A DNA stretch of 64,000 bases from Candidatus Sulfotelmatobacter sp. (GCA_036514015.1 DATBYA010000115.1:24113-88112), one strand, 5' to 3'; shown: positions 12,907 through 62,964, numbered from the stretch's first letter. Notes: generated from the sequence alone by a model not told the origin. Program-made: numbers and translations.

Positions 12907-13830
12907 ATGACCTCTGTCCCCAAAAACATCTGTGTTTCTGACGCGGGAAGAACCTCGGAACTTATACCCGCCGCCGCTGTCCGTCCGGACGGCGATCTGC
13001 CCAGTCCGGAAAACTTGCTCCAGGAATATAAGGAACTGCGAGAGCGTTTCCAGCGCACCACGAACGCCCTCGCTTCCGCCGCCCACGATCTGAAGACACC
13101 GCTGTCGATTCTGATCGGCTACGTCGAGGTGCTGCACTGCGAGAAGTTGGGATCGCTTAACGACCGCCAGCGCGAAGTCTTGCACGATATGCAGGCCAGC
13201 GGAAAGCGCCTGCAACAGTTCATTCAGGATTTCCTGACGTACAGCGCCCTCGAAACCGGAGGGCTGCGCATGCAGTTCGAGCGCGGCAATATCAACCACT
13301 GTCTGTCGGAAGTCTCCCACCTGTGGTCCAATCGCTTTCAGGAAAAGGGGCTGGCGCTTTATTTTCTGGCCAATGATAAACTGCCGATTTTTTCCTTCGA
13401 TACACCGAAACTGGAGCGCGTAATCTCGAACCTGCTGGAGAATTCCTTCAAGTTCACCTCCTCCGGCGGAACGGTGTGGCTGCACGCCGAGCCACATATG
13501 TGGGAACGGCGGGCGGCGGCTCAGCCTTCGATGGCCGAACGGCGCCGGCAAAATGTAAGTCAGCCCAACTCCGTCAAAGTCAGCGTCTCCGATACCGGTC
13601 CCGGAATTCCCGCCGAGTTTCACCAGGAAGTGTTTGACGATTTCTTCCGCCTTCCCGGAACCGAAACTCAGGACGGCATGGGATTGGGTCTGGCCATCGC
13701 GCGCCGCCTGGTGCAAGGCATGGGGGGCAAGATCTGGGTCGAGAGTGAAGCCGGCGCGGGCTGCAAATTTTCCTTCCTGATCCCTTATAAACCGGCTGTG
13801 GGGGCTGCCAGCAAGGGGAGAAACCGATGA
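12907..13830 (+). CDS. Short soluble histidine kinase (HisKA plus HATPase_c, no TM or sensor domain)
   Basis: H-box SAAHDLKTPLSIL, N-box ISNLLENSFKFT, G-boxes VSDTGPGIP and GMGLGLAIARRLV. Only ~55 residues precede the H-box. Confidence 0.85.
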   Translation: MTSVPKNICVSDAGRTSELIPAAAVRPDGDLPSPENLLQEYKELRERFQRTTNALASAAHDLKTPLSILIGYVEVLHCEKLGSLNDRQREVLHDMQASGKRLQQFIQDFLTYSALETGGLRMQFERGNINHCLSEVSHLWSNRFQEKGLALYFLANDKLPIFSFDTPKLERVISNLLENSFKFTSSGGTVWLHAEPHMWERRAAAQPSMAERRRQNVSQPNSVKVSVSDTGPGIPAEFHQEVFDDFFRLPGTETQDGMGLGLAIARRLVQGMGGKIWVESEAGAGCKFSFLIPYKPAVGAASKGRNR

Positions 13831-15233
13831 AACAAACCGCCAAGATCCTGCTGGTGGACGATGAACCCGGCATGCTTCGCTATATCAAAACACTGCTCGA
13901 AGTGGACGACTACACAGTCGAAACCGCGACCACCGGCGAGGAAGCGCTGGTCCTGGTGGAAAAAGGCTTGAAACCGGACCTTGTATTGCTCGACGTGCTC
14001 ATGCCAGGCATCGATGGCCTGCAAACTCTCGAGCAGCTGCGGCAGCTCCAACCCGGCGTAAAAGTGGTCATGTTGTCCTGCGTCAATGATACCCGCAAAG
14101 TGGTCCATGCCATGAAACTGGGCGCCCAGGACTATCTCACCAAGCCTTTTCAGAAAGCAGAACTGGACGCGGTCATCGATCTCAGCCTCGGTCAGGGGAA
14201 ACAGGCTTACAGCGGCGAAGTGGAAGAGCTCTCCGACGATGTCTTCTTCATTGCAGCGAGTCCCGCCATGCGCAAGATTCGCTCCCAGGCCGCGCTGGTG
14301 GCAAATGTAGATATTCCCGTGCTGCTGCTGGGCGAAAGCGGCACCGGCAAGGAAGTGCTGGGGCGACTCATCCACAAGCTTTCCAAGCGCGCTCATCGGA
14401 CATTTCTCAAGGTCAACTGCGCCGCGGTTCCCGCCGACCTGCTCGAGAGCGAGCTTTTCGGCTACGAACAGGGCGCTTTCACCGGCGCCAACCACACGAA
14501 ACCGGGCAAATTCGAACTGTGCAACCGGGGAACGATTCTGCTCGACGAAATTGGCGAGATGCCGCCCCTGTTGCAGGCGAAACTCCTGCATGTATTGCAG
14601 GATCAGACATTCTCTCGCCTGGGCAGCCGTACCGTGATCAAGGTTGACGTGCGGATTCTGGCGGCAACCAACATTAACATTCCGGAGGCGCTCGCCAGCA
14701 AACGCCTGCGCGAAGATCTTTACTACCGGCTGAACGCCTTCACCATGCAGATTCCGCCGCTGCGCGAGCGCAAGGAAGAGATTCCCATCCTGCTAAAACA
14801 CTCCATGTCGCGCATGGCGGAGCGTTATGCGCGGCCCCCGCTCCCGCTTTCTCCAGCCTTGCTGCAAGCCTGCCAGAATCACTCCTGGCCCGGGAATCTC
14901 CGCGAGTTGAATAATTTTCTCAAACGCTATTTGATTCTCGGGGATGAGAAGCTGGCGGTCGCCGAATTATTGCCCAGAAACGATGGCACCGGAGGCGTAC
15001 CTGGCGATGCCTCGGGCCGGGGAGCAGAATCGGGCGGACTAAAGTCTCTGGCGCGCACCGCCAAAGATGAAGCCGAAGCCCAGGCTATTACTCAGGCTCT
15101 GGAGCAGACCAACTGGAACCGCAAGCAGGCAGCCGGGATTCTTCAGATCAGCTACAAAGCTCTGCTCTATAAAATCCGGCAGTATGGCATTGCCGAGGCG
15201 AAGGGACACCACAAGCTGTCGGCGGGAGCGTAA
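13827..15233 (+). CDS. NtrC-family response regulator / sigma-54 activator (REC, AAA+, HTH; PrsR-like by context)
   Basis: The ATGA start overlaps the kinase stop. REC: ILLVDDEPGML...LVLLDVLMPGIDG...LTKPF. AAA+: LLLGESGTGKE, GYEQGAFTGAN, ILLDEIGEM. HTH: WNRKQAAGILQISYKALLYKIRQYG. Confidence 0.9.
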   Translation: MKQTAKILLVDDEPGMLRYIKTLLEVDDYTVETATTGEEALVLVEKGLKPDLVLLDVLMPGIDGLQTLEQLRQLQPGVKVVMLSCVNDTRKVVHAMKLGAQDYLTKPFQKAELDAVIDLSLGQGKQAYSGEVEELSDDVFFIAASPAMRKIRSQAALVANVDIPVLLLGESGTGKEVLGRLIHKLSKRAHRTFLKVNCAAVPADLLESELFGYEQGAFTGANHTKPGKFELCNRGTILLDEIGEMPPLLQAKLLHVLQDQTFSRLGSRTVIKVDVRILAATNINIPEALASKRLREDLYYRLNAFTMQIPPLRERKEEIPILLKHSMSRMAERYARPPLPLSPALLQACQNHSWPGNLRELNNFLKRYLILGDEKLAVAELLPRNDGTGGVPGDASGRGAESGGLKSLARTAKDEAEAQAITQALEQTNWNRKQAAGILQISYKALLYKIRQYGIAEAKGHHKLSAGA

Positions 15234-15361
15234 GCTCTTCCGATGCAGGCTGCGCGGTTGACACTTTTTCTCAAACGGTTGGCCCACAACACAATGCTGG
15301 GGGGCCTTCCTCTTTCGATCGTCTCGCAAAGCCAACCTAAGAGCAAGATGGCCGCCGAAGG

Positions 15362-18300
15362 TTACGGAACGGAAAGCGTGATGGTCTGGCTCTTAGTATC
15401 GCTGCCGGACGTCGCTGTAACCGTGATTGTGGAGTTGCCGGGGGGCGTTCCGCTTACCGGCGCTTGCGTGGTTTGGCCGCTGCACGCCGGCAACAGCAGG
15501 AGCAGCGCGAACATAACGCACAGGGATAGTATTCCGGCGATTCGTCTTCGGCGCCCGTTCCCTCCGATCCCTACAAACAGCAGGCTCAATCCCGGAACCA
15601 TCAACCAGATCGCATAGAAACGGCGAGTCAGCAAACTCGAGACCGGCGTAGTCACGGGTCGGGCGGTGGTGGTTATGTTTAGCGTGGAGGAGCCGGGGCC
15701 TTGCAGCGAAACCGGGTTGGTCGTGAAGGTGCACGCAGACGCCGATGGCAAGCCGGTACACGCCAGCGAAATGTTGGTTCCGTACACGGGATGTGGAGTG
15801 AGCTGTATTTGGTAGGTGGCCGTGTCCCCTGCAACTGGCACGCTTCCGTTGGTGGGGGTGACGGTGAGGCTGAAGTCGGACATCTGCGCCGGCACCGAGG
15901 TTTGTGCCAGGACAATGTTGCCCGCCCCGGTCACTTGCACGGAACCCCCGTTGAAAGAGCCCGCAGTCCCACTGCTGTTCGGGGTGGGCGATACCACGAT
16001 GGTGATCGTGGCCGTCGAACCGGACTGCAGCGAGGGCAAGCTGCAGCTCACAATTGCGTTAGTCGACCCTCCGCCGCAGGTTCCGGCACTGGTGCTGGCC
16101 GATACAAAGGTCAGCGGCACCCCAGTGATCAAGGGACTCAGATTGTCCAAAAGCGTGATGTTGTTGGCCAAGTCAGGACCGTTATTGGTCACCGTGTAGG
16201 TGAACGTAGCCTGGTTCCCTGCACTGATGTAAAGCTGGTTGGTGCCTAGCGTCAGGGTTCCGCTGAGCGATAAGCTCACGGCGGTTCCCAGTTGGGTCAC
16301 AAAGGCGTCGTAACCGCCGCCGTTCGTTGGCTGCAATGGCTTCGAGACCTGCAGATCCACCGAGTTGGTGTCGCCTGCGAAGTAGGCGTTTTGGTTCACA
16401 TCCAGCGTGATGCCAGTACCTTCGTCCGTCCCGCTTCCGCCGAAGTAATTGGCCCACGAACCGGCTGTCGTCTGTCCGACCACGGTAGCCGTGTTCAGCC
16501 GTGCGACGAACGCATCCTGCGGCCCATTCAGAGCGCTCTGAATGGAATTGGGGCTCGGGAGGACGGGGAAATCCGGGGACTGAGTCCAGCCCGTCACTAA
16601 AGCGCCGCTGCCATTATCCACCGTGATCGCCAGTCCGGCTTCGTTGTCGCTTCCCCCGAGGTAGGAGAAATAGTTGAGCGTCACGTCGACCGGAATCGTG
16701 GTTGTGGTCGTAGACGTTGGATTTGACAGGCGCGCTACAAACGCGTCACTCGGAGCCCCAGCGGTCGCTGTGCAAACCAGCGTACTAGGATTGACGAGGT
16801 TGTCCAGACAGCGTTGCAGCGGGGCAGAGGTAACCGCAGTCGTTGCGCTCGTCCCAATGTCGATCGAATTTGTGGTTCCCACGAGATAAACGTTAGCCGC
16901 TCCGGAATCGAGGCCGATACCCATTCCCGAATCCGTTCCACTCCCACCCACATAAGTCGACCAGATCAGTTGCTCTCCCTGATTTGCGTTGGGATTCAGC
17001 TTCGCCACAAAGGCATCTGAGGCTGTCGTACTCGTAGTCGTCGCGCACGAAGGAGGATTGACGATGGTGGTCGGGGGCGCCGTATCCAGACAAGGCTGGT
17101 AAGGATTCAGGATGGGGAAGTCGGAGTTGCTGCATCCCGAGCATCCGGTATAGATAAAGTTGGTGGTGCCAGTGAAATACATGTTGCCGTTGGTATCGAC
17201 TGCAATACCGCCGCCCACAGCAATCGGCGCTGGGGTGTCGAAGGTTGCTCCGCCAAAATACGTTGAATAGGCGATGCTGCTGGCTCCCTGTGCGGCCGTA
17301 TTGACTTTGGTTACAAAGAACTGAATGGGTCCGCGCGGCGTGACTTGATATGGCAGTTTCTGAGGAAGCGTGGTCGCCGGGAATTGATCGGTGGTGCTAG
17401 CCGCATCCGTGGACGTGGTCGTCCCCGTCACGTACATGTAACCGGAGGCATCGATGGTCACGCCGCTGGCGATGTCGGTGCCGTTTCCGGAAAGGTAGGA
17501 CGAATACTGCAGGGTGGTGGCGTCGTACTTCAACTCGGTCACGAATGCGTGCGACGTGCCGGTGCTCCCCGGTTCCGGAGCAGTCTGATAGGCAGTGAGC
17601 GGAGTGATGGGAAAGTTGCTCGAGGACGTTGTCCCCGCCACGAAAGCATCGCCCTGCCCGTCTACGTTGATTCCAACCGGGCTGTCGGTGCCATTGCCAC
17701 CGAGATAAGTCACGTAATCCAGCGCTGCCACAATGGAACCTAGCGGCGGCGTAATCTTGGCAATGTAAACGTTCTGCGCGCCCGCCAGCGCCGTCTGTTT
17801 GACCCCGGTAGCCGCCGGAAGGTTGGGCGAGGTCGTCGAACCCGTCAGGTAAATGTTGAAGCTTCCGTCGATCGCAATGAAGGTCGAATGCTCGTCTCCG
17901 CTGCCCCCAAAATAAGTCGAGAAGGTCAGGATCGGGTCAATCACCAGTTCGCGTGAATGGTCATACGATCCAATCGCAAATCCGGCGCGGTTCGCCCCGC
18001 GCAGAACGAAGCTGCCTTCCACGGATTGCCGCTTCCCACCCGTCTCCTGATACACTCGCGGCGCCCCAAGCCGCACGCTGCCGTCCTCGCCGTGGATAAC
18101 CAGAGCCCCATCTTTCAGTTCCAGTTTTTTCGCACCCTTGAATTCCAGCTCGGCTTGCCTCGGATCTGACCCGGGCGCGACCTGGAAGTCATATTCCAGC
18201 CGTCCCTGATTGCCGTAGAAGAGCAGGTTGATTCCGGGGTAAACATTTTCATAGCGCACCCGCGCGAACTGCGGCACACTATGCCGCCACTTCGTGGGAT

Positions 18301-55991: not shown

Positions 55992-56939
55992 TTATTTCTG
56001 GGCGGCCGCGCGGGCAAGTTCGCGCCATGTGACCAGCTTGATGTTCTGTTGCGCCAGAACCTGGCGGAACTGGTCGCTCGTGAAAAAATCGAAGTCGCGC
56101 TGCCGCCAGGCCGCACCCCAGGTGGGACGTTCGCGGGTTGCGGCACGCAGTTCTTCGTCGTCGTAACCGGGATGGATGACAAACTCCGTGACGCCGGGTT
56201 TCAGATTCCTGAGCGCGGTCAGATAAAAGTCCGCCCACTTTTCCGGCGGGACTTCCGGTTCAATCGTGACCGTGTGATCCAACACAATATCTCCTGGACC
56301 GAGACGGGCCGACAGGTAGGGATAGGCAGCAAACCAATCTCGGGTAACGAACACTGGCAACTTGTAGTCATGGGCCACGCGTAGCATCACCTCGAACAGA
56401 TCCTTACCGCTCATGATCAGCCGATACTGATGCGAATCGAGATGCGTGGGACGAACTCCCATCGCCAGCGCGCGCTCGATCTGGGCGCGCAGTTCGATCT
56501 CGACTTCCTTGGCATCGATTTTCTTTGCCCCGATGTGCTCGTTCTGCTCCCAATCGTGATGAAAGTAGCCGTTTTCATCTACCAAGCTCGGCACTTTGTC
56601 CGCCGGCGCGGCCGGACCCCAGCGGTAGTAGACTCGCTCGGCCGTCAGGGTGAGGTGCAGCCCCAGGTCGGCGTCGGGATGAGACTTGGCGTAGTCGGCC
56701 ATCTCCGGGAACCATGGACAAGGCACCATCAGACTAGCGGAGTTGATCGTGCCGCCGGTGAGAGCCTTCATAGCGGCGGCATTGACGGCGTGCGTTTCGC
56801 CCAGATCGTCGGCGTGGACAATAATGAGCTTGGTGCCGGGAGGGTAGCCCAGGCGGTCCGCCAAAGTTTGCGCAAAAGCCTCGAGTGTGAAGAGAAGAAG
56901 GCCGACCAGCAATAGGAGGAAGAAAGGGCGAGAAATCAT
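55992..56939 (-). CDS. YdjC/ChbG-family carbohydrate deacetylase with signal peptide
   Basis: Signal MISRPFFLLLLVGLLLFTLEAFAQ, then KLIIVHADDLGETHAVNAA...GTINSASLMVPCPW...DLGLHLTLTAE...THLDSHQY. Confidence 0.8.
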   Translation of the reverse strand: MISRPFFLLLLVGLLLFTLEAFAQTLADRLGYPPGTKLIIVHADDLGETHAVNAAAMKALTGGTINSASLMVPCPWFPEMADYAKSHPDADLGLHLTLTAERVYYRWGPAAPADKVPSLVDENGYFHHDWEQNEHIGAKKIDAKEVEIELRAQIERALAMGVRPTHLDSHQYRLIMSGKDLFEVMLRVAHDYKLPVFVTRDWFAAYPYLSARLGPGDIVLDHTVTIEPEVPPEKWADFYLTALRNLKPGVTEFVIHPGYDDEELRAATRERPTWGAAWRQRDFDFFTSDQFRQVLAQQNIKLVTWRELARAAAQK

Positions 56940-57032
56940 AGGCGATTAGTAAATCACATCGGACTCACCTACGGCTCGGAGTTTGGTGGTAGACGCTCAC
57001 GCCTGAGCGCATTCCCGAAATCGATCCTCAGG

Positions 57033-58403
57033 TCAAGTTTCTTTGTCCGCCTCGTCGGTGATTCCGATCTTTGACAGGCGGTAACGCAACGCATTGCGCG
57101 AGAGTCCCAGCAGTCGAGCGGCCTGACTCTTGTTGCCATTGGCGCGACGCAGGGCTTCCTGCACCATCTCGTCTTCCCACTGCTCCAGGGTCATGCCGTC
57201 GGGAAGAAATCCGCCGGCGTCATTCCCGGCTTTTGCCGGGCGCACATCCAGGTGGATGTCGGATGGGCCGAGCACGCTGCCTTTGGCCAGCGCGCAGGCC
57301 CGCTCGACAATGTTCTGCAGCTCGCGAACATTTCCCGGCCAGTGATAGCTCACGAGAATTTTCATCGCCTCAGGAGTAATGCCTTCGACGGGCTTGCCGG
57401 ATTCTCCGGTGAAACCGGAGACGAACAGGTTCACCAGATCGGGAATATCCTCCTTCCGTTCGCGCAACGGCGCAATGTCGATGGGGACGACATTCAGACG
57501 ATAGTAGAGATCTTCGCGAAAGGTGCCTTGCTCGAGCGCCTGGCGCAGATCCTTGTTGGTGGCGGCAATGAGGCGCACGTCGACCTTCACGGTACGCGTT
57601 CCGCCCAGGCGTTCGAACTCGCGCTCCTGCAGTACACGCAATAATTTGACTTGCGTTACCGGCGGCACGTCGCCGATCTCGTCGAGGAAGAGCGTTCCTT
57701 TATCCGCAAGTTCGAACTTGCCGGGCTTACTGGCAACGGCCCCGGTGAAGGCTCCTTTTTCAAAGCCGAACAATTCGCTTTCCAGAAGATTTTCAGGAAT
57801 GGCAGTGCTGTTGATCTTCAGGAAGGGGCCTGAAGCACGACGCGATTTTTCGTGAATGGCGCGCGCGATCAAGTCTTTGCCCACACCGCTTTCGCCGCCC
57901 AGAAGCACGGTGGAATTGGTCGGGGCGACCCGCTCCACGGTGGCCAGCACTTCCTGCATTTTCGGGCTGCGGGCAACGATGTTGGGATGCGAAAAGCGCT
58001 TGCCCAGGGCCTCGCGCAGCGAGCGGTTCTCTTCCCGCAGATCGCGTACATCGAGTTCTTTGTGGATGACCATCCGCATCTCGGTCAGCGAAAACGGTTT
58101 CAAAACGTAGTCGCTGGCCCCGGCCTTCATGGCCTCGACGGCGGTTTCGACACTGCCGAAAGCAGTCATCACAACGACCGGCAGAATTGCGTTCTGACGC
58201 TTAATGGTCTGCAGAAATTCCAGACCGTTCATGCCGGGAAGCTTCAGGTCGGTCAAGATGAGATCGATGGGATGTTCGCGCAGCAGTTTGAGGCCGCTTT
58301 CGGCATCTCCGGCAGAAACCGTGGCGAATCCGTCGTCGCCAAGATTTAGCTCGAGCAAGCGGCGCATCTTGGCCTCATCCTCGACGATCAGAATGGTCGG
58401 CAT
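57033..58403 (-). CDS. NtrC-family response regulator / sigma-54 activator
   Basis: REC: ILIVEDEAKMRRLL...LILTDLKLPGMNG...VLKPF. AAA+: VLLGGESGVGKD, GFEKGAFTGAVASKPGKFELADKGTLFLDEIG. HTH: GNKSQAARLLGLSRNALRYRLSKIG. Confidence 0.9.
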   Translation of the reverse strand: MPTILIVEDEAKMRRLLELNLGDDGFATVSAGDAESGLKLLREHPIDLILTDLKLPGMNGLEFLQTIKRQNAILPVVVMTAFGSVETAVEAMKAGASDYVLKPFSLTEMRMVIHKELDVRDLREENRSLREALGKRFSHPNIVARSPKMQEVLATVERVAPTNSTVLLGGESGVGKDLIARAIHEKSRRASGPFLKINSTAIPENLLESELFGFEKGAFTGAVASKPGKFELADKGTLFLDEIGDVPPVTQVKLLRVLQEREFERLGGTRTVKVDVRLIAATNKDLRQALEQGTFREDLYYRLNVVPIDIAPLRERKEDIPDLVNLFVSGFTGESGKPVEGITPEAMKILVSYHWPGNVRELQNIVERACALAKGSVLGPSDIHLDVRPAKAGNDAGGFLPDGMTLEQWEDEMVQEALRRANGNKSQAARLLGLSRNALRYRLSKIGITDEADKET

Positions 58404-58440
58404 AGATCGGTCTTCCTCGCTTCACGGAATCTTCCGGGGC

Positions 58441-59802
58441 TCATGAGATCACCAGATGAGCCGTTTCTCCGACGGCGGTCTGCGCACTGGCGGCGGGGAA
58501 AAAAATCACGAACCGCGCGCCCTGACTTGGTTCACGCTTCCCTGGCTCACTCGAGCCTGTGGCGACTTCGCCGGCGGAATCTTCCGGAGCTTCGATGCGA
58601 ATCGTACCCTGATGTCCATCAATAATTTTCGAGACGATGGACAGTCCCAGGCCGACGCCGCTTTTCTTGGTGGTCACGAAGGGATTAAAGATTTGTTCCC
58701 GCAACTGCACAGGAATCCCAGGCCCGGTGTCTGCAATGCGCACTTCGACCCCGTCGAGCCTGCCGCCGTTACGGCTCTCCGCACTCGATTTGCGGACATC
58801 GACGAAAAGCTTGCCTCCGCCGGAACCCATGGCATCGTAGCCATTCTGCACAATATTAACGAATGCCTGCTCGCACAGGCTCTCATCCAGCGGCACCAGT
58901 GGCAGATCAGGCTCATACTTTTTCTCCACCCGAACCTCTCCTCCCTTCCAAAACTGCGCCACATCATTCAAGGCACGATCGAGAACCGTGGTGATGTCTT
59001 GCGCCGTCAGATCCGCGTGCAGCGGACGGGCGAAATCCAGGAAGCGCGTGACCAGGGCGCCCAGCCGGTTGGTTTCCGTCGAAATATATCCCGCCAGTTC
59101 GGTGGCCAGCGGATTGGAGTCTCCCAGCTTCTGGGTCAGCATTTCCGCCGAGCCTTTGATGACTCCCAGGGGATTGCGGATCTCGTGGGCCAGTCCGGCG
59201 GAAAGCTGACCGAGGGCGGCCAATCGTTCGGAGCGCCGCGCCTCGGCCTGCGCCTGCTCCAGGCGGCGGTTGGTCTCGGCCAGAGTCGCGGCGAGTTCCT
59301 GATAGCGCCGGGTCTGGCGCCGGCTCTCGATGACAAAACGGTTGACCACCATGGCCGCGAGGAAAAAAAAGACGATGCGGATCGCCAGCCGTCCGTAATC
59401 CTCGGAGGAAATGTCGTACTCCTGCAACGCGGGATAGAGATAGGAACAGTAGGCGGCCGAGGCCAGCGAGGTCCACAGCAAGGTGGCCCAGGGGCCGAAA
59501 AATTCCGCCGCCGTGACCGCAGGCAAGTAGTAAATGGGATAGTAATAACTGTTGATCGGGATTTCTCCCGTGTGATCCACCAGGAGCGTGGCCAGGGCGA
59601 TCTTTAACAGGACCAGATAAATCGGGGCGCGGCGAGGCACGCGGGCAATCAACCAACCCTCGCTCAATTGCAGTACGCCGAAGGCAAGCAAGATGAATTG
59701 CTTGTGGATCTCCTTGACTGGCGGCAGGACAGCGAGTAAGGCTAGCAACACCAGCCACAGGACATCCATCCAGTTAATGGTGGGACGCTTGGCTTCGATC
59801 AT
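58441..59802 (-). CDS. Membrane sensor histidine kinase (5-6 TM N-terminal domain, HisKA, HATPase_c)
   Basis: The hydrophobic N-terminal 160 aa are followed by a coiled coil, H-box LSAGLAHEIRNPLGVI, N-box FVNIVQNGYDAM, and G-boxes DTGPGIP and GVGLGLSIV. Confidence 0.9.
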   Translation of the reverse strand: MIEAKRPTINWMDVLWLVLLALLAVLPPVKEIHKQFILLAFGVLQLSEGWLIARVPRRAPIYLVLLKIALATLLVDHTGEIPINSYYYPIYYLPAVTAAEFFGPWATLLWTSLASAAYCSYLYPALQEYDISSEDYGRLAIRIVFFFLAAMVVNRFVIESRRQTRRYQELAATLAETNRRLEQAQAEARRSERLAALGQLSAGLAHEIRNPLGVIKGSAEMLTQKLGDSNPLATELAGYISTETNRLGALVTRFLDFARPLHADLTAQDITTVLDRALNDVAQFWKGGEVRVEKKYEPDLPLVPLDESLCEQAFVNIVQNGYDAMGSGGGKLFVDVRKSSAESRNGGRLDGVEVRIADTGPGIPVQLREQIFNPFVTTKKSGVGLGLSIVSKIIDGHQGTIRIEAPEDSAGEVATGSSEPGKREPSQGARFVIFFPAASAQTAVGETAHLVIS

Positions 59803-59838
59803 TTTTCTTCTGTCATTTTGCTTCCGTCATTTTGCTTC
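59799..59838 (-). repeat. Three tandem copies of a 14-nt unit that includes the kinase start codon
   Basis: The minus strand reads GAAGCAAAATGACg GAAGCAAAATGACa GAAGAAAAATGATc GAAGCC... Each unit carries an ATG. The first two open 5-codon mini-ORFs (MTEAK*, MTEEK*), and each TGA overlaps the next ATG. Confidence 0.6.
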
Positions 59839-60001
59839 GACGACCCGGCTTCGCACGGGAACACCGCGCACGAAAACCGATTCGCTTAAAAGACTACGCC
59901 GGGAGCGGTTGCGATTCTCCCGGCGTCTGCCCTTGATTGGTTGTCTGGTCCGCGAAACCCATCGCATGCGAACCTATCACATCGCAAGCAGCCCCTGGAC
60001 G

Positions 60002-62002
60002 TCAACGGCCTTTCTTGGACGGGCTCTGTGATTTCGGTTCCGATGCCCGCGGCGCGGGCGGGGCCGGCCTTGACGGCGGCGGAGCAGCAGGACGCTGTTG
60101 ATGCCATTGATTGAATTTTTGCTCCTGCTGCTGCTCCTGTTGCGGGCTGCGCTGCTCGACCGGCGGAGCGGGCCGAACCAGCGGATGCATCCCTTCTGAA
60201 GACGGCCGATTGGCAGGCTGCGCATTGGCACTGTCGGGCCGCTGCACGTTCTCCGGCTCCGGAGTTCCCTGCTGCTCGTAAGTCCGCGGTTGCGTCTGCG
60301 GGAGTTGTCTTACCTGATTATTCCCACTGCTGGGTTGAGTGAACGGCCGGAAGCCATCTATGGTTGGCGTTGTCGCCGGCGTCAGCCGTCCGCCTGTACT
60401 TGTCTGAGCGGGCGGCGCGGCCCCCACAGGACGAACCAAGGCCTGCTGATTCAAATGTCCACCTGCCTGCGCCTGCCGCTGTTCGATGGAGCGCGAAGGC
60501 GCGGGAGGCGTCCTCACCGCCACTACCTGACGGCTCATCACCGCTGCCGGGGGCCTGACGGATGCGGGCCGTCCGGCGCCCGTCACGCTAGCGCGGATTG
60601 GTTCGGCTGTCACAACCCGAGTGACGGGCGCCGCGGCCAATTCCCTGGAATCAACTCTCATCAGGTTCTGTGCCACCGGGCGCGCATTCACAAACGCGTC
60701 GTGCGATACCACAGTGACGCCGTTCGCGACGTGCTGATTCACATATGAGATGTGGTTGACGGTGGTGCCTCGGTTCACGAACTCCGTGTTGTAAACGTTC
60801 GTGATCTTGGTGACGGTCACCGATGTATTGGTGAGGTTCACATTATTCACGTAGGCGCGGCTCACGCGATATGCGGGAAGATAAACTTCTCCCGGAGCAA
60901 GCGGGAACCATCCCACGCCAAGGCCCGCGGAGAAGCGGAAACCGGGTCCGCCGCCCACGAATGCGACCAGGGCTGGAGCCCAGATCGGCCGCACTACCAC
61001 CGGCCCGGGCACCCAGAACCAACCATTGTTGACAAAGGCCCAGCGCCCGTAGTGGAAGGGGGCGAATCCCCAGGGCTCGTCTTCGACCCAGGTCCAGCCC
61101 CAGCGGCCAACATAAATCCAATGACCAAAACGATAGGGAGCCCATCCCAGGACAACGGCCCGAGGGCGCCAGCAGGGACCGTAACCAGCCACGTAGCTCC
61201 AGTCGCCGTATTCGTCCAGATCCTCATACCCGGTCATTTCCCGGGAAACATAATTCGCCGAGTCGGCGCGGTCTTCGCTGTCGTCGCGTTCGAACGCCCA
61301 TGTATCCAAATCGTCGCGGTCGGGAAGTTGCGCGACCTGGTAGTCGAGGTGATCGCCGCCAGTGAACGTTGCGGATTGATTTGCCACCACCGTATAGGTA
61401 TCTCCGCCGCCCGTTACCCGGCCCCGGCCGTGCCAGACAGTGGTGATCGACTGACTTCCATCCTCGCTCACGTCGACCCGATATTCGCCGGGTTGCAACA
61501 GGCTGAAAGCGATGTTCGGCGTATCGATCTCGTAGTTGTCATCGTCATCGACGTGACGCACTCGCAGAATGAGCGAACCCTGTGCCAGGCGAATCTGCGT
61601 GGTGTGGTCGTCGAGCTCGAGGAAAGTGATTCCGGTCTTCGCTCCCAGGCGGATTGCCGCCGAACCGGCATGTACTTCGGCGCGGGAATCTTCGTCGGCC
61701 CAAAGGTCATCGCCGGTAACCATGGGCCGGTTGGGCACCCCGGAGACCCAGTCGTCTTCGCCAGCCGGACGAAATGAGATCGAGCCTTCAGAGAAGCTCA
61801 GACGCGCTACGCGGCCGGGCAGATCCTGGGATTGGTCCTGATCCGGACTTTGGTCGGGACTCTGGTTGGGGGTCTGACTAGGATCTGGATTCGGACTCTG
61901 ACCTTGGCCATCGTCCTGCGCTCTGGCGGTAAGCGAAACCTGCAGGATAAGTGCAAAGCTGGCCAGCAATAAAACCCAAGTCCACCACTTGCGCGTCTTC
62001 AT
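60002..62002 (-). CDS. Secreted FecR-like protein with Trp/Tyr-rich module and Pro/Gln-rich tail (paralog of 44043..46535)
   Basis: ATG 62002 with signal MKTRKWWTWVLLLASFALILQVSLTARAQ. VARLSFSEGSISFRPAGEDDWVSGVPNRPMVTGDDLWADEDSRAEV. W-rich block YGDWSYVAGYGPCWRPRAVVLGWAPYRFGHWIYVGRWGWTWVEDEPWGFAPFHYGRWAF. Confidence 0.7.
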   Translation of the reverse strand: MKTRKWWTWVLLLASFALILQVSLTARAQDDGQGQSPNPDPSQTPNQSPDQSPDQDQSQDLPGRVARLSFSEGSISFRPAGEDDWVSGVPNRPMVTGDDLWADEDSRAEVHAGSAAIRLGAKTGITFLELDDHTTQIRLAQGSLILRVRHVDDDDNYEIDTPNIAFSLLQPGEYRVDVSEDGSQSITTVWHGRGRVTGGGDTYTVVANQSATFTGGDHLDYQVAQLPDRDDLDTWAFERDDSEDRADSANYVSREMTGYEDLDEYGDWSYVAGYGPCWRPRAVVLGWAPYRFGHWIYVGRWGWTWVEDEPWGFAPFHYGRWAFVNNGWFWVPGPVVVRPIWAPALVAFVGGGPGFRFSAGLGVGWFPLAPGEVYLPAYRVSRAYVNNVNLTNTSVTVTKITNVYNTEFVNRGTTVNHISYVNQHVANGVTVVSHDAFVNARPVAQNLMRVDSRELAAAPVTRVVTAEPIRASVTGAGRPASVRPPAAVMSRQVVAVRTPPAPSRSIEQRQAQAGGHLNQQALVRPVGAAPPAQTSTGGRLTPATTPTIDGFRPFTQPSSGNNQVRQLPQTQPRTYEQQGTPEPENVQRPDSANAQPANRPSSEGMHPLVRPAPPVEQRSPQQEQQQEQKFNQWHQQRPAAPPPSRPAPPAPRASEPKSQSPSKKGR

Positions 62003-62230
62003 AGGTTCGCCCCGAAGGTGTTCGCTCCGACAGAATCGAAGTCCGTATCTCGTTGATCTTACCGACATCCCTGTAAACACAATAGAATCGGTTAAGTTTC
62101 CCTGGGTACGGAAGTGCTTGCCTGTGGCAGACTTGCTGTAGAAACCTTGCTTCGAATCTCTCTCTCGCCACGGTTCGAAAGTGCCGTTGGCAGAGACATA
62201 GCAAGCTACGTCTCTGCGACGGCTCCGCGG

Positions 62231-62788
62231 TTAGTTTTTCAGTTTAGGACGCTGGCAGGCATCCACGATCTTTGTAGGATCAATGGCGTCTTTGTCCACC
62301 TGCTCTTCCTTGATCTTTCCATCTTTGCCGATCAGGAAGTTTACCCGCCGGGCTGCGTGATATTCGTCTTTGTAGATGCCGTACTCGTGGGTTACTTTTC
62401 CGCCCCAATCGCTGAGAAGGGGGAAGGTTACACCAATTTGGTCGGCGAAGGCTTTGTTGGCGAAGGGACTATCCATGCTCACACCCAGGACCTGGGTGTC
62501 GGCTGCTTCCAGCGTTTTCAGGTTTTGCTGGAAGTTTTTCATTTGCTGGGTTCAACCACCGGTAAAGGCAAAGACGTAGAACGCCAGCACAACATTTTTC
62601 TTGTCGCGATAGTCGCTCAACTTCATCTCTTTCAGCTTACCTTCATCGAAGTATTTCAGCGTGAAGTCCGGCGCCACGTCGCCCACCTTGGGCATGCTCG
62701 AATCGTCTTTGGTTTGTGCGATCGCTGGCGCTGCCATCATCGCTAACAGCAGACTTGCCCACAGAAGTGCTAGCCTCGTTCTATGCAT
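62231..62788 (-). CDS. Secreted BCP/AhpC-TSA-type peroxiredoxin with in-frame TGA at the peroxidatic-Cys codon (candidate selenoprotein; otherwise a nonsense pseudogene)
   Basis: Track ORFs 62552..62932 and 62231..62542 share one frame and are split only by TGA 62554..62552. Joined they read ...[13 protein letters not shown][U]TQQMKNF...LGVSMDSPF...FPLLSDW. ATG 62788 follows GGAGGG, and the signal is [25 protein letters not shown]. Confidence 0.6.
62506..62534 (-). other. Candidate bacterial SECIS-like hairpin 17 nt downstream of the UGA
   Basis: mRNA CUUCCAGC-AAAACCUGAAAAC-GCUGGAAG forms a perfect 8-bp stem with a 13-nt loop. It has not been evaluated with a SECIS model. Confidence 0.35.
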
Positions 62789-62964
62789 TCTTGAACCCTC
62801 CAACGGTAGTAATTGCCCGGCATACCCCGCCGTGGCTGTATGGTACACCGGGAAGTACCTAACAATGTCATGGGACACATTGCCCAAGACCCCGGCAAAA
62901 CAGTACAGTTCTGTTCGGAGCCGATTGCCCACATTTAAGCAAGGACTCCGCCCCGATTGACGCG

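Follow-up and report, generated by a model that had tools for sequence, protein, structure and literature searches.

A very probable selenocysteine-encoding peroxiredoxin gene of Candidatus Sulfotelmatobacter with two conserved hairpins downstream of its in-frame UGA

The 64,000-nucleotide stretch of Candidatus Sulfotelmatobacter sp. DNA analyzed here (GCA_036514015.1, DATBYA010000115.1:24113-88112), called the window in this report, very probably carries one functional gene (62788..62231, minus strand) for an exported AhpE-like peroxiredoxin that uses selenocysteine (Sec, or U) as its peroxidatic residue, encoded by the UGA at 62554..62552. The gene is intact, its UGA occupies the column shared by Cys and Sec, TGA is the only stop codon used there, and both halves of the gene are under purifying selection. 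Its interest derives mainly from the abundance of its clade in soil, from its systematic misannotation, and from a conserved but non-canonical pair of hairpins that follows the UGA.

The complete gene (62231..62788, minus strand) comprises 185 codons and a TAA. It codes for a predicted signal peptide and then an AhpE-like peroxiredoxin domain, and contains a single in-frame TGA. Between the ATG at 62788 and the TAA at 62231, the TGA at 62554..62552 is the sole interruption. The original prediction, which was made from the sequence, held that two minus-strand ORFs (62552..62932 and 62231..62542) share one frame and are separated only by this TGA and three sense codons. This is borne out (the sense codons are T, Q and Q), and the read-through product has the anticipated length of 185 amino acids. 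The start codon (62788..62786) is located 7 nucleotides downstream of a GGAGGG sequence (62796..62801, minus strand) that might serve as a Shine-Dalgarno sequence. A signal peptide had also been anticipated, and the first 24 residues (62717..62788, minus strand) indeed have a basic n-region, a hydrophobic core and an A-x-A motif, from which we predict a Sec-type signal peptide (named here for the translocon) with cleavage before Q. An equivalent N-terminal hydrophobic segment is present in all homologues, where it ends in SFAQ, ASAQ, LAQ or a similar sequence. The full-length protein would be exported via the Sec translocon and its signal peptide removed.

The assignment of the protein to the peroxiredoxins is strong. 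Pfam AhpC-TSA (PF00578) matches over positions 1-123 of its 124-position profile, with an E value of 3.8e-35 and a score of 121 bits where the cut-off is 26. The closest solved structures are 2ywn_A, a chain deposited as 'Peroxiredoxin-like protein', and Mycobacterium tuberculosis AhpE (Rv2238c), with E values of about 1e-20 to 1e-22, and the AhpE structures 1xvw, 4x1u, 5c04 and 4x0x match at 8e-21 to 2e-20. In the structure-sequence alignment, the TGA (62552..62554, minus strand), which is the proposed Sec codon for residue 79, falls in the column of the peroxidatic Cys, where AFTGG-U aligns with AFTGI-C of AhpE and AFTQV-C of 2ywn_A. The original prediction had placed the stop at the peroxidatic Cys column of BCP/AhpC-TSA proteins, and this placement holds for the solved structures as well as for Cys-containing homologues, which carry TGC or TGT exactly at the TGA column.

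Other active-site residues are likewise in place. Thr76 (62561..62563, minus strand), the Thr of the T-x-x-U motif (FAFTGGU), aligns with the Thr of AhpE AFTGIC and is T or S in every relative. Arg148 (62345..62347, minus strand) aligns with the Arg of AhpE ANRGTF and corresponds to the conserved peroxiredoxin active-site Arg. Both Arg148 and the active-site Thr-x-x-Cys(Sec) are invariant in an alignment of 12 sequences (A1). The same is true of Cys178 (62255..62257, minus strand), the lone Cys near the C-terminus to which the original prediction had drawn attention; it lies in the motif AIDPxxxxxxC, a second Cys is found clade-wide, and the residue is a candidate resolving cysteine. The Pro of the universal PxxxTxxC motif is replaced by V72 in the window protein (YVFAFTGGU). 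This position is Val or Ile in most of the clade and Pro in Bryobacterales-type members (FFPAAFTGGU). By analogy with the family, Thr76 and Arg148 would position U79, whose selenolate would reduce peroxides and in doing so become a selenenic acid. Cys178 would probably form a selenenylsulfide with U79, which a periplasmic thiol reductant might then reduce.

A protein search yielded 4710 relatives. The top matches are mostly 103-residue C-terminal fragments that start at one common Met, which indicates that the same split occurs wherever the gene was called. Matches that appear to be full length carry either Trp or a genuine Cys at the U column, and we read the Trp-bearing proteins as products of short contigs translated with genetic code 4. 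DNA sequences were taken for 80 species-level genome representatives, nearly all from Acidobacteriota. In the 75 genome loci that were located by motif, 77 sites carry TGA in this column and three carry TGC. Neither TAA nor TAG occurs, and TGA persists down to approximately 40% protein identity. A metagenome scan seeded with Cys forms gave TGA at 79 of 79 loci, again with no TAA or TAG. TGA sites in relatives total 156, and those among genome loci number 78 when the window is included. TGC or TGT is found at the column in P0006, P0008, P0014, P0105, L078, L079, L080 and L085-L089. The recurrence of this split, always with TGA, is far beyond chance.

In the mRNA, representatives from the branch that includes the window (Terriglobales, here called type A) carry two hairpins downstream of the UGA, and those from a distant branch (type B) carry one. 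Hairpin 1 (62506..62534, minus strand) has an 8-bp stem that starts 17 nucleotides 3' of the UGA and is formed by CUUCCAGC (62534..62527) and GCUGGAAG (62513..62506). The enclosed 13-nucleotide loop (62526..62514) starts 25 nucleotides after the UGA and in the window begins with AA, leaving no G in its first two positions. Hairpin 2 (62481..62499, minus strand) is formed by ACACCCAG (62499..62492) and CUGGGUGU (62488..62481), and can be drawn either with 8 bp and a GUC loop (62491..62489), which begins 60 nucleotides past the UGA, or with 7 bp and a GGUCC loop. Both hairpins had been noted in the original prediction, the first as an 8-bp stem 17 nucleotides 3' of the UGA and the second in its 7-bp form, and both are present where it placed them. 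However, its view that hairpin 2 is probably too far from the UGA fits poorly with the comparative data, because this hairpin is conserved more strictly than hairpin 1 and has a canonical G-U apex.

Several lines of evidence support these structures. The 91-nucleotide stretch that spans them folds into exactly hairpins 1 and 2 (-32.9 kcal/mol, z = -3.35), and none of 200 dinucleotide shuffles is as stable as the native sequence. RNAalifold independently recovers both hairpins. Among 41 species, 94% of the cells in the comparison are paired for hairpin 1 and 99.7% for hairpin 2, and the latter has three pairs that have changed on both sides. All eight pairs of hairpin 2 are also retained in 79 of 79 metagenome copies. 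Its compensatory exchanges include CAG/CUG with CAA/UUG and A-U with G-C, while its loop is always G-U-N. In orthologues, both the TGA and the downstream stem-loops are conserved.

Codon usage provides further evidence. The arm codons of hairpin 1 are frozen synonymously (TTC 34/35, CAG 40/40, CTG 37/38 and GAA 37/37), whereas its loop codons vary normally, with 86 distinct loops in 120 sites. Per-codon synonymous diversity is 0.4-0.7 along the gene versus 0.00-0.14 in the stem codons. The low-diversity codons are those for F+7, Q+8, L+14, E+15, T+19, Q+20, L+22 and G+23, again with normal values for the loop codons. Specifically, Glu+15 is GAA in 37 of 37 sequences, although GAA and GAG are about equally common elsewhere in the gene, and Gly+23 is GGT in 40 of 40 compared with about 27% GGT among the other Gly codons. 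Synonymous reshuffling evaluated by minimum free energy (MFE) gave a mean z of -1.63 versus +0.37 in a control region; this measure is moderately sensitive on single sequences (p ~0.05 for the window), and the synonymous diversity profile is more informative. Both hairpins are under selection.

The type A hairpins depart from the published bacterial SECIS (bSECIS) model (bSECISearch), which calls for a stem of 4-16 bp, an apical loop of 3-9 nucleotides with G in its first two positions, a distance of 16-37 nucleotides between the UGA and the loop, and an MFE of no more than -7.5. In the window, the loop of hairpin 1 has 13 nucleotides (limit 9) and no G among the first two. The apex of hairpin 2 is canonical, but its loop is 60 nucleotides from the UGA (limit 37). 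Searches of Rfam identified no SECIS family, either in the whole window at gathering thresholds or in 62400..62620 at E values up to 10, where matches were at chance level only.

The type B hairpin, in contrast, satisfies all bSECIS criteria. Type B members come from Pyrinomonadaceae, Blastocatellia, Bryobacterales and other groups, and their single hairpin (for example, GGCGUAUCA-GGC-UGAU(A)UCGCC) has a 9-bp stem and a 3-nucleotide loop, G[G/U]C, that begins 23 nucleotides past the UGA. Five of the nine pairs have changed on both sides (AUC/GAU, ACC/GGU and UCC/GGA), and the resulting covariation score was reached by none of 500 shuffles. Type B genes also encode the TQVLG peptide but do so without hairpin 2, which indicates that the RNA structure is not dictated by the protein sequence.

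Cys forms of the gene serve as controls, albeit few, since there are seven Cys-form sites in eight loci (L087 is the same as L088) and the metagenome scan seeded with Cys forms returned TGA forms only. The hairpins are absent from Cys copies that lie beside Sec copies on the same contig, as in L078 and in domain 1 of the fused L089, and they are absent as well from the Cys forms L079, L080 and L087. However, the Cys form L085, whose contig has a k-mer coverage below 1, retains both hairpins, and L086 retains them in part. Thus, the hairpins are not strictly tied to TGA everywhere.

Recoding would require that SelB with Sec-tRNA(Sec) is recruited at the UGA by mRNA structure located just downstream. 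In type A, this recruiting structure would consist of two hairpins, the first at a canonical distance but with a large and variable loop, and the second with a canonical G-U apex. One way to reconcile these features is a compound SECIS in Terriglobales, wherein hairpin 1 would act as a sequence-independent spacer and SelB would bind hairpin 2. We put this arrangement forward tentatively, as plausible but somewhat unlikely. If hairpin 1 is closed, 29 nucleotides are folded away, and the distance separating the UGA from the hairpin 2 loop would shrink to 17 + 6 + 8 = 31 nucleotides, within the range of 16-37. If correct, the compound element would represent a class of bacterial SECIS outside current models. 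In BSepDB, 12.6% of selenoprotein entries lack a canonical SECIS, and compound elements could explain part of these.

Hairpin 1 might instead function alone as a non-canonical SECIS, with hairpin 2 serving in ribosome pausing, mRNA stability or a similar process. We consider this quite possible, although still short of an even chance. Hairpin 1 starts 17 nucleotides past the UGA, which is the position where SECIS elements of the E. coli type act, and the F/Y-Q codons of its 5' arm are identical to those of the canonical type B hairpin. Moreover, two representatives (L036 and L057_10126) carry a proximal hairpin with a G-U-C loop in addition to hairpin 2, demonstrating that hairpin 2 can coexist with a canonical proximal element; these RNAs could be evolutionary intermediates or could be a sign that hairpin 2 has another role. 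However, SelB recognition normally requires defined apical nucleotides, which sits uneasily with hairpin 1 acting alone, as do the stricter conservation of hairpin 2 and its invariably G-U-N loop. This reading competes with the two-hairpin arrangement and not with the assignment of the gene as a selenoprotein gene.

Whichever way the two hairpins contribute, Sec insertion would depend on machinery encoded elsewhere in the genome. ARAGORN reported no tRNA in the 64-kb window, and tblastn identified no selA, selB or selD in the window or in loci L001-L089 when probed with approximate E. coli SelA, SelB and SelD sequences and with published Solibacter SelA and SelB. Only one tRNA-SeC was reported by ARAGORN among loci L001-L080. 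It carries the anticodon tca and is located in L071, from a Terriglobia metagenome-assembled genome (MAG), at a distance of 3.3 kb from the TGA-peroxiredoxin gene. No Sec machinery gene was identified in 88 of the 89 loci examined (L001-L089). SelA homologues are widespread in Bryobacteraceae and Acidobacteriia MAGs, but the best 120 homologues of Solibacter SelA were all Bryobacterales-like, and none matched in length the contigs of the MAGs that bear the peroxiredoxin. Together with the tRNA of L071 and the abundance of SelA, published Sec users in the phylum give indirect support to Sec usage. Solibacter usitatus has SelA, SelB and a Sec-containing FdhA (Zhang et al. 2006 supplement), and Occallatibacter riparius, which is filed under Acidobacteriota, is a Sec user with three selenoproteins (PMC12013277); FdhA, AhpD-like and deiodinase-like selenoproteins occur in Occallatibacter. 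A search for a second selenoprotein gene, covering same-frame ORF pairs joined by TGA in the window and, in all loci, in-frame TGA codons with a hairpin of the G-[GU] loop type downstream, gave no credible candidate.

The lack of Sec machinery in the window and the non-canonical nature of the type A hairpins could be taken to mean that the UGA is recoded to Cys, Ser or another residue by a suppressor-type tRNA, such as a SelC*-like tRNA-Cys that a SelB-like factor delivers, or an allo-tRNA. Acidobacteria have 8/4 and 9/3 tRNAs that are possible nonsense suppressors, and UGA may also be read by a tRNA-Cys from deltaproteobacteria that resembles tRNA-Sec (Mukai et al., PMC5389517). We nevertheless judge this explanation very improbable. 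A tRNA-SeC (tca) adjoins the gene in L071, the type B branch carries a canonical bSECIS, and the codon coincides with a redox-active Cys in a family for which Sec members have been both proven and predicted. Furthermore, TGC would give Cys without any such apparatus, and yet TGA has been retained in more than 150 lineages. On these grounds, we infer that residue 79 is Sec rather than another amino acid.

Explanations in which the UGA is simply a stop fare far worse. Automatic callers do give two fragments, and the label 'redoxin domain-containing protein' is attached at NCBI to a 103-residue piece, as might be expected of a Cys-peroxiredoxin that suffered a nonsense mutation and left two ORFs as decaying remnants. 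However, such a pseudogene is extremely improbable, since 156 independent relatives have TGA at this column, none has a different stop there, and the RNA structure after the codon is maintained. The 40 codons that precede the TGA are free of stops at all 78 sites (77 in relatives plus the window), the frames downstream extend for 105-115 codons, and no frameshifts or additional stops, which would have pointed to decay, were seen in relatives. Selection acts on both sides of the codon. Among 40 species from the branch of the window, pN/pS is 0.17 before the TGA and 0.25 after it, with synonymous sites near saturation (pS 0.69 before and 0.56 after). A recently spread single clone is excluded because pS is approximately 0.6. 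The claim in the original prediction that the codon represents a Cys/Sec signature rather than random decay is therefore well supported by the exclusive use of TGA among stops and by purifying selection on both halves, a pattern that could not result from pseudogene decay, an error in sequencing or a gene that is truly split.

A split gene, wherein translation stops at the UGA and restarts at the ATG at 62542 to yield an exported peptide (78 residues) and a cytoplasmic fragment (103 residues) that would assemble or function independently, has in its favor that this ATG lies four codons past the TGA and is where callers begin the second ORF, but we give it almost no credence because the restart Met is Leu in the distant type B branch (TKEL...), so that the restart codon is not conserved, because the fold would be cut at its active site, losing the catalytic residue and leaving the pieces in different compartments, and because it accounts neither for the hairpins nor for TGA being the only stop used.

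Selenoproteins of this kind have precedents. T-x-x-U Sec-peroxiredoxins have reportedly been known since the work of Sohling et al. in 2001 on PrxU of Eubacterium acidaminophilum. Today, T-x-x-U peroxiredoxins are recognized as a family of bacterial selenoproteins, of which PrxU is biochemically proven (review table, PMC13188914). We are highly confident that the gene in the window is real and, as judged from its sequence, that it encodes Sec and belongs within this known family.

The most similar described selenoproteins are Sec-Prx_2 and Prx_3 of Anaeromyxobacter dehalogenans (Zhang et al. 2006, Genome Biol 7:R94, supplementary sequences). The window protein shares 38% identity over 143 amino acids with Prx_2 (E 2e-30) and 48% identity over 110 amino acids with Prx_3 (E 2e-28). 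All three have the AhpC-TSA fold with U at the peroxidatic position in AF(T/S)xxU T, and Prx_2 also has the C-terminal AIDPxxxxxxC motif (AIDPAGAITSC). Thus, the protein family, and even the subfamily, is already known. Unlike these proteins, which come from another phylum, the window protein carries the motif FTGGU in place of FTPGU or FTPVU and has Val for the Pro of PxxxTxxU, and its mRNA forms a two-hairpin arrangement downstream of the UGA. It also has the predicted signal peptide, a feature for which the 2006 Anaeromyxobacter entries, being N-terminally truncated, are not comparable. In the literature searched, the acidobacterial clade, its signal peptide, the Val or Ile in place of Pro and the two-hairpin RNA are undescribed, although databases of the BSepDB type may list the genes, and no paper in that literature mentions 'Sulfotelmatobacter' and 'selenocysteine' together.

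PrxU (NCBIfam NF040737) is the best-scoring NCBIfam model and likewise has Sec at the peroxidatic site. However, the window protein scores 87.8 bits against a curated equivalog cut-off of 270, indicating that it is not a PrxU orthologue. PrxU is of a longer AhpC/Prx1-like type (233 model positions) with the motif FTFVU, and is a cytoplasmic protein of a strict anaerobe. AhpE (Rv2238c; PDB 1xvw, 1xxu, 4x0x) shares the AFTG-x-C context and the conserved Arg, but it is a cytoplasmic 1-Cys protein that has Cys at the active site and lacks a resolving Cys, whereas the window protein has a predicted signal peptide and an invariant C-terminal Cys. Several relatives are labeled 'mycoredoxin-dependent peroxiredoxin' by JGI. 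At the RNA level, consensus bSECIS elements such as that of E. coli fdhF are also stem-loops that lie within the coding sequence immediately after the UGA, but in the lineage of the window the canonical features are divided between two hairpins. The conserved pair offers a clean natural system in which to test how much divergence from the canonical model a bacterial SECIS tolerates.

Existing annotations obscure the gene. The original prediction expected automatic callers to report fragments or a pseudogene, and the 103-residue C-terminal fragment from the window is indeed NCBI entry HEY4765147.1, 'redoxin domain-containing protein'. Public databases contain thousands of near-identical 103-residue 'peroxiredoxin' fragments, and at NCBI and JGI the gene product is either called a truncated protein or has the TGA translated as Trp. 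Recognition of the gene as encoding one selenoprotein would correct a systematic annotation error.

Acidobacteria of soil and peat very commonly carry the gene, and 82 blocks of a contig collection index the exact 103-residue fragment from the window. Moreover, the Sec form greatly outnumbers the Cys form in the clade, as is evident from the 79 of 79 metagenome loci recovered even with Cys-form queries, which suggests a reliance on selenium among the dominant bacteria of soil for extracytoplasmic peroxide defence.

The Gly codon immediately preceding the TGA (62555..62557 in the window) is GGT in 36 of 40 species of type A, the Terriglobales branch to which the window gene belongs. Among these species, synonymous diversity at this codon is 0.18, compared with 0.4-0.7 elsewhere. 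This bias is a hint that the 5' context is under constraint for recoding.

Several peroxiredoxin genes from relatives are duplicated or fused. At locus L089 (104..877 and onward; proteins P0014 and P0022), a Cys domain and a Sec domain lie in tandem within a single reading frame, and both hairpins that characterize the region 3' of the UGA in type A are located in the Sec domain, with neither present in the Cys domain. The second peroxiredoxin domain, which is fused after the Cys domain, ends at GG-TGA. Tandem paralogues spaced by about 600 nucleotides are found at five other loci. At L078, a Cys copy (9607) is followed by a Sec copy (10207), and TGA is present in both copies at L046 (9469/10126), L057 (9498/10126), L058 (8155/8726) and L065 (5550/6173). 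In each of these last four loci, one of the two TGA copies carries the motif AFYI[KR]A[FS]T[PG]G-U, a motif similar to that of Anaeromyxobacter Sec-Prx_2, a T-x-x-U peroxiredoxin from a 2006 survey.

Some representatives vary at or near the active site. Loci L167 and L168 (site 1722) have the active-site context AFYVWAFSSD-U instead of FAFTGG-U, and both hairpins are intact. Locus L085 (481; protein P0008) is a Cys form (TGC), with both type A hairpins retained, on a contig whose k-mer coverage is below 1. The TGC is either the outcome of a very recent conversion from Sec to Cys or the result of a miscalled third base in the codon. Trp occupies the TGA column in seven JGI gene calls labeled 'full-length' (P0001, P0002, P0003, P0005, P0007, P0032 and P0107), which we read as short contigs translated with a code that assigns TGA to Trp. 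Such translation is another way in which a selenoprotein gets hidden.

In the window, a hairpin of 12-13 base pairs (GCAGAGACGUAGC/GCUAUGUCUCUGC; 62190..62217, minus strand) begins 14 nucleotides past the TAA. It lacks a U-tract and was not called by the terminator scan, and it might serve as a transcript-end or stabilizing structure. The downstream gene order is shared by the window (55992..62080, minus strand) and loci L081-L084. It begins with a DUF6600 protein whose long tail is rich in Pro and Gln, followed by a HisKA sensor kinase, a sigma-54-dependent response regulator and YdjC. On the upstream side of the peroxiredoxin gene is a divergent gene of the AMP-binding (acyl-CoA synthetase-like) type. 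No obvious redox partner is evident within this conserved neighborhood.

At eight loci (L013, L014, L016, L017, L022, L023, L027 and L035), a tRNA-Met gene (anticodon cat) is located immediately 3' of the peroxiredoxin gene, about 50-320 nucleotides past its stop codon; in the window, the DUF6600 gene occupies this place. Locus L071 carries a tRNA-SeC gene (13726..13820) 3.3 kb downstream of its TGA-peroxiredoxin. Adjoining this tRNA gene are two ORFs (14143..14697 and 14749..16299, both minus strand), one thioredoxin-like (SCPVCQ) and the other, as judged by eye, resembling a pyridine-nucleotide disulfide oxidoreductase. Together with the tRNA-SeC gene, these ORFs may constitute a small redox/selenium neighborhood.
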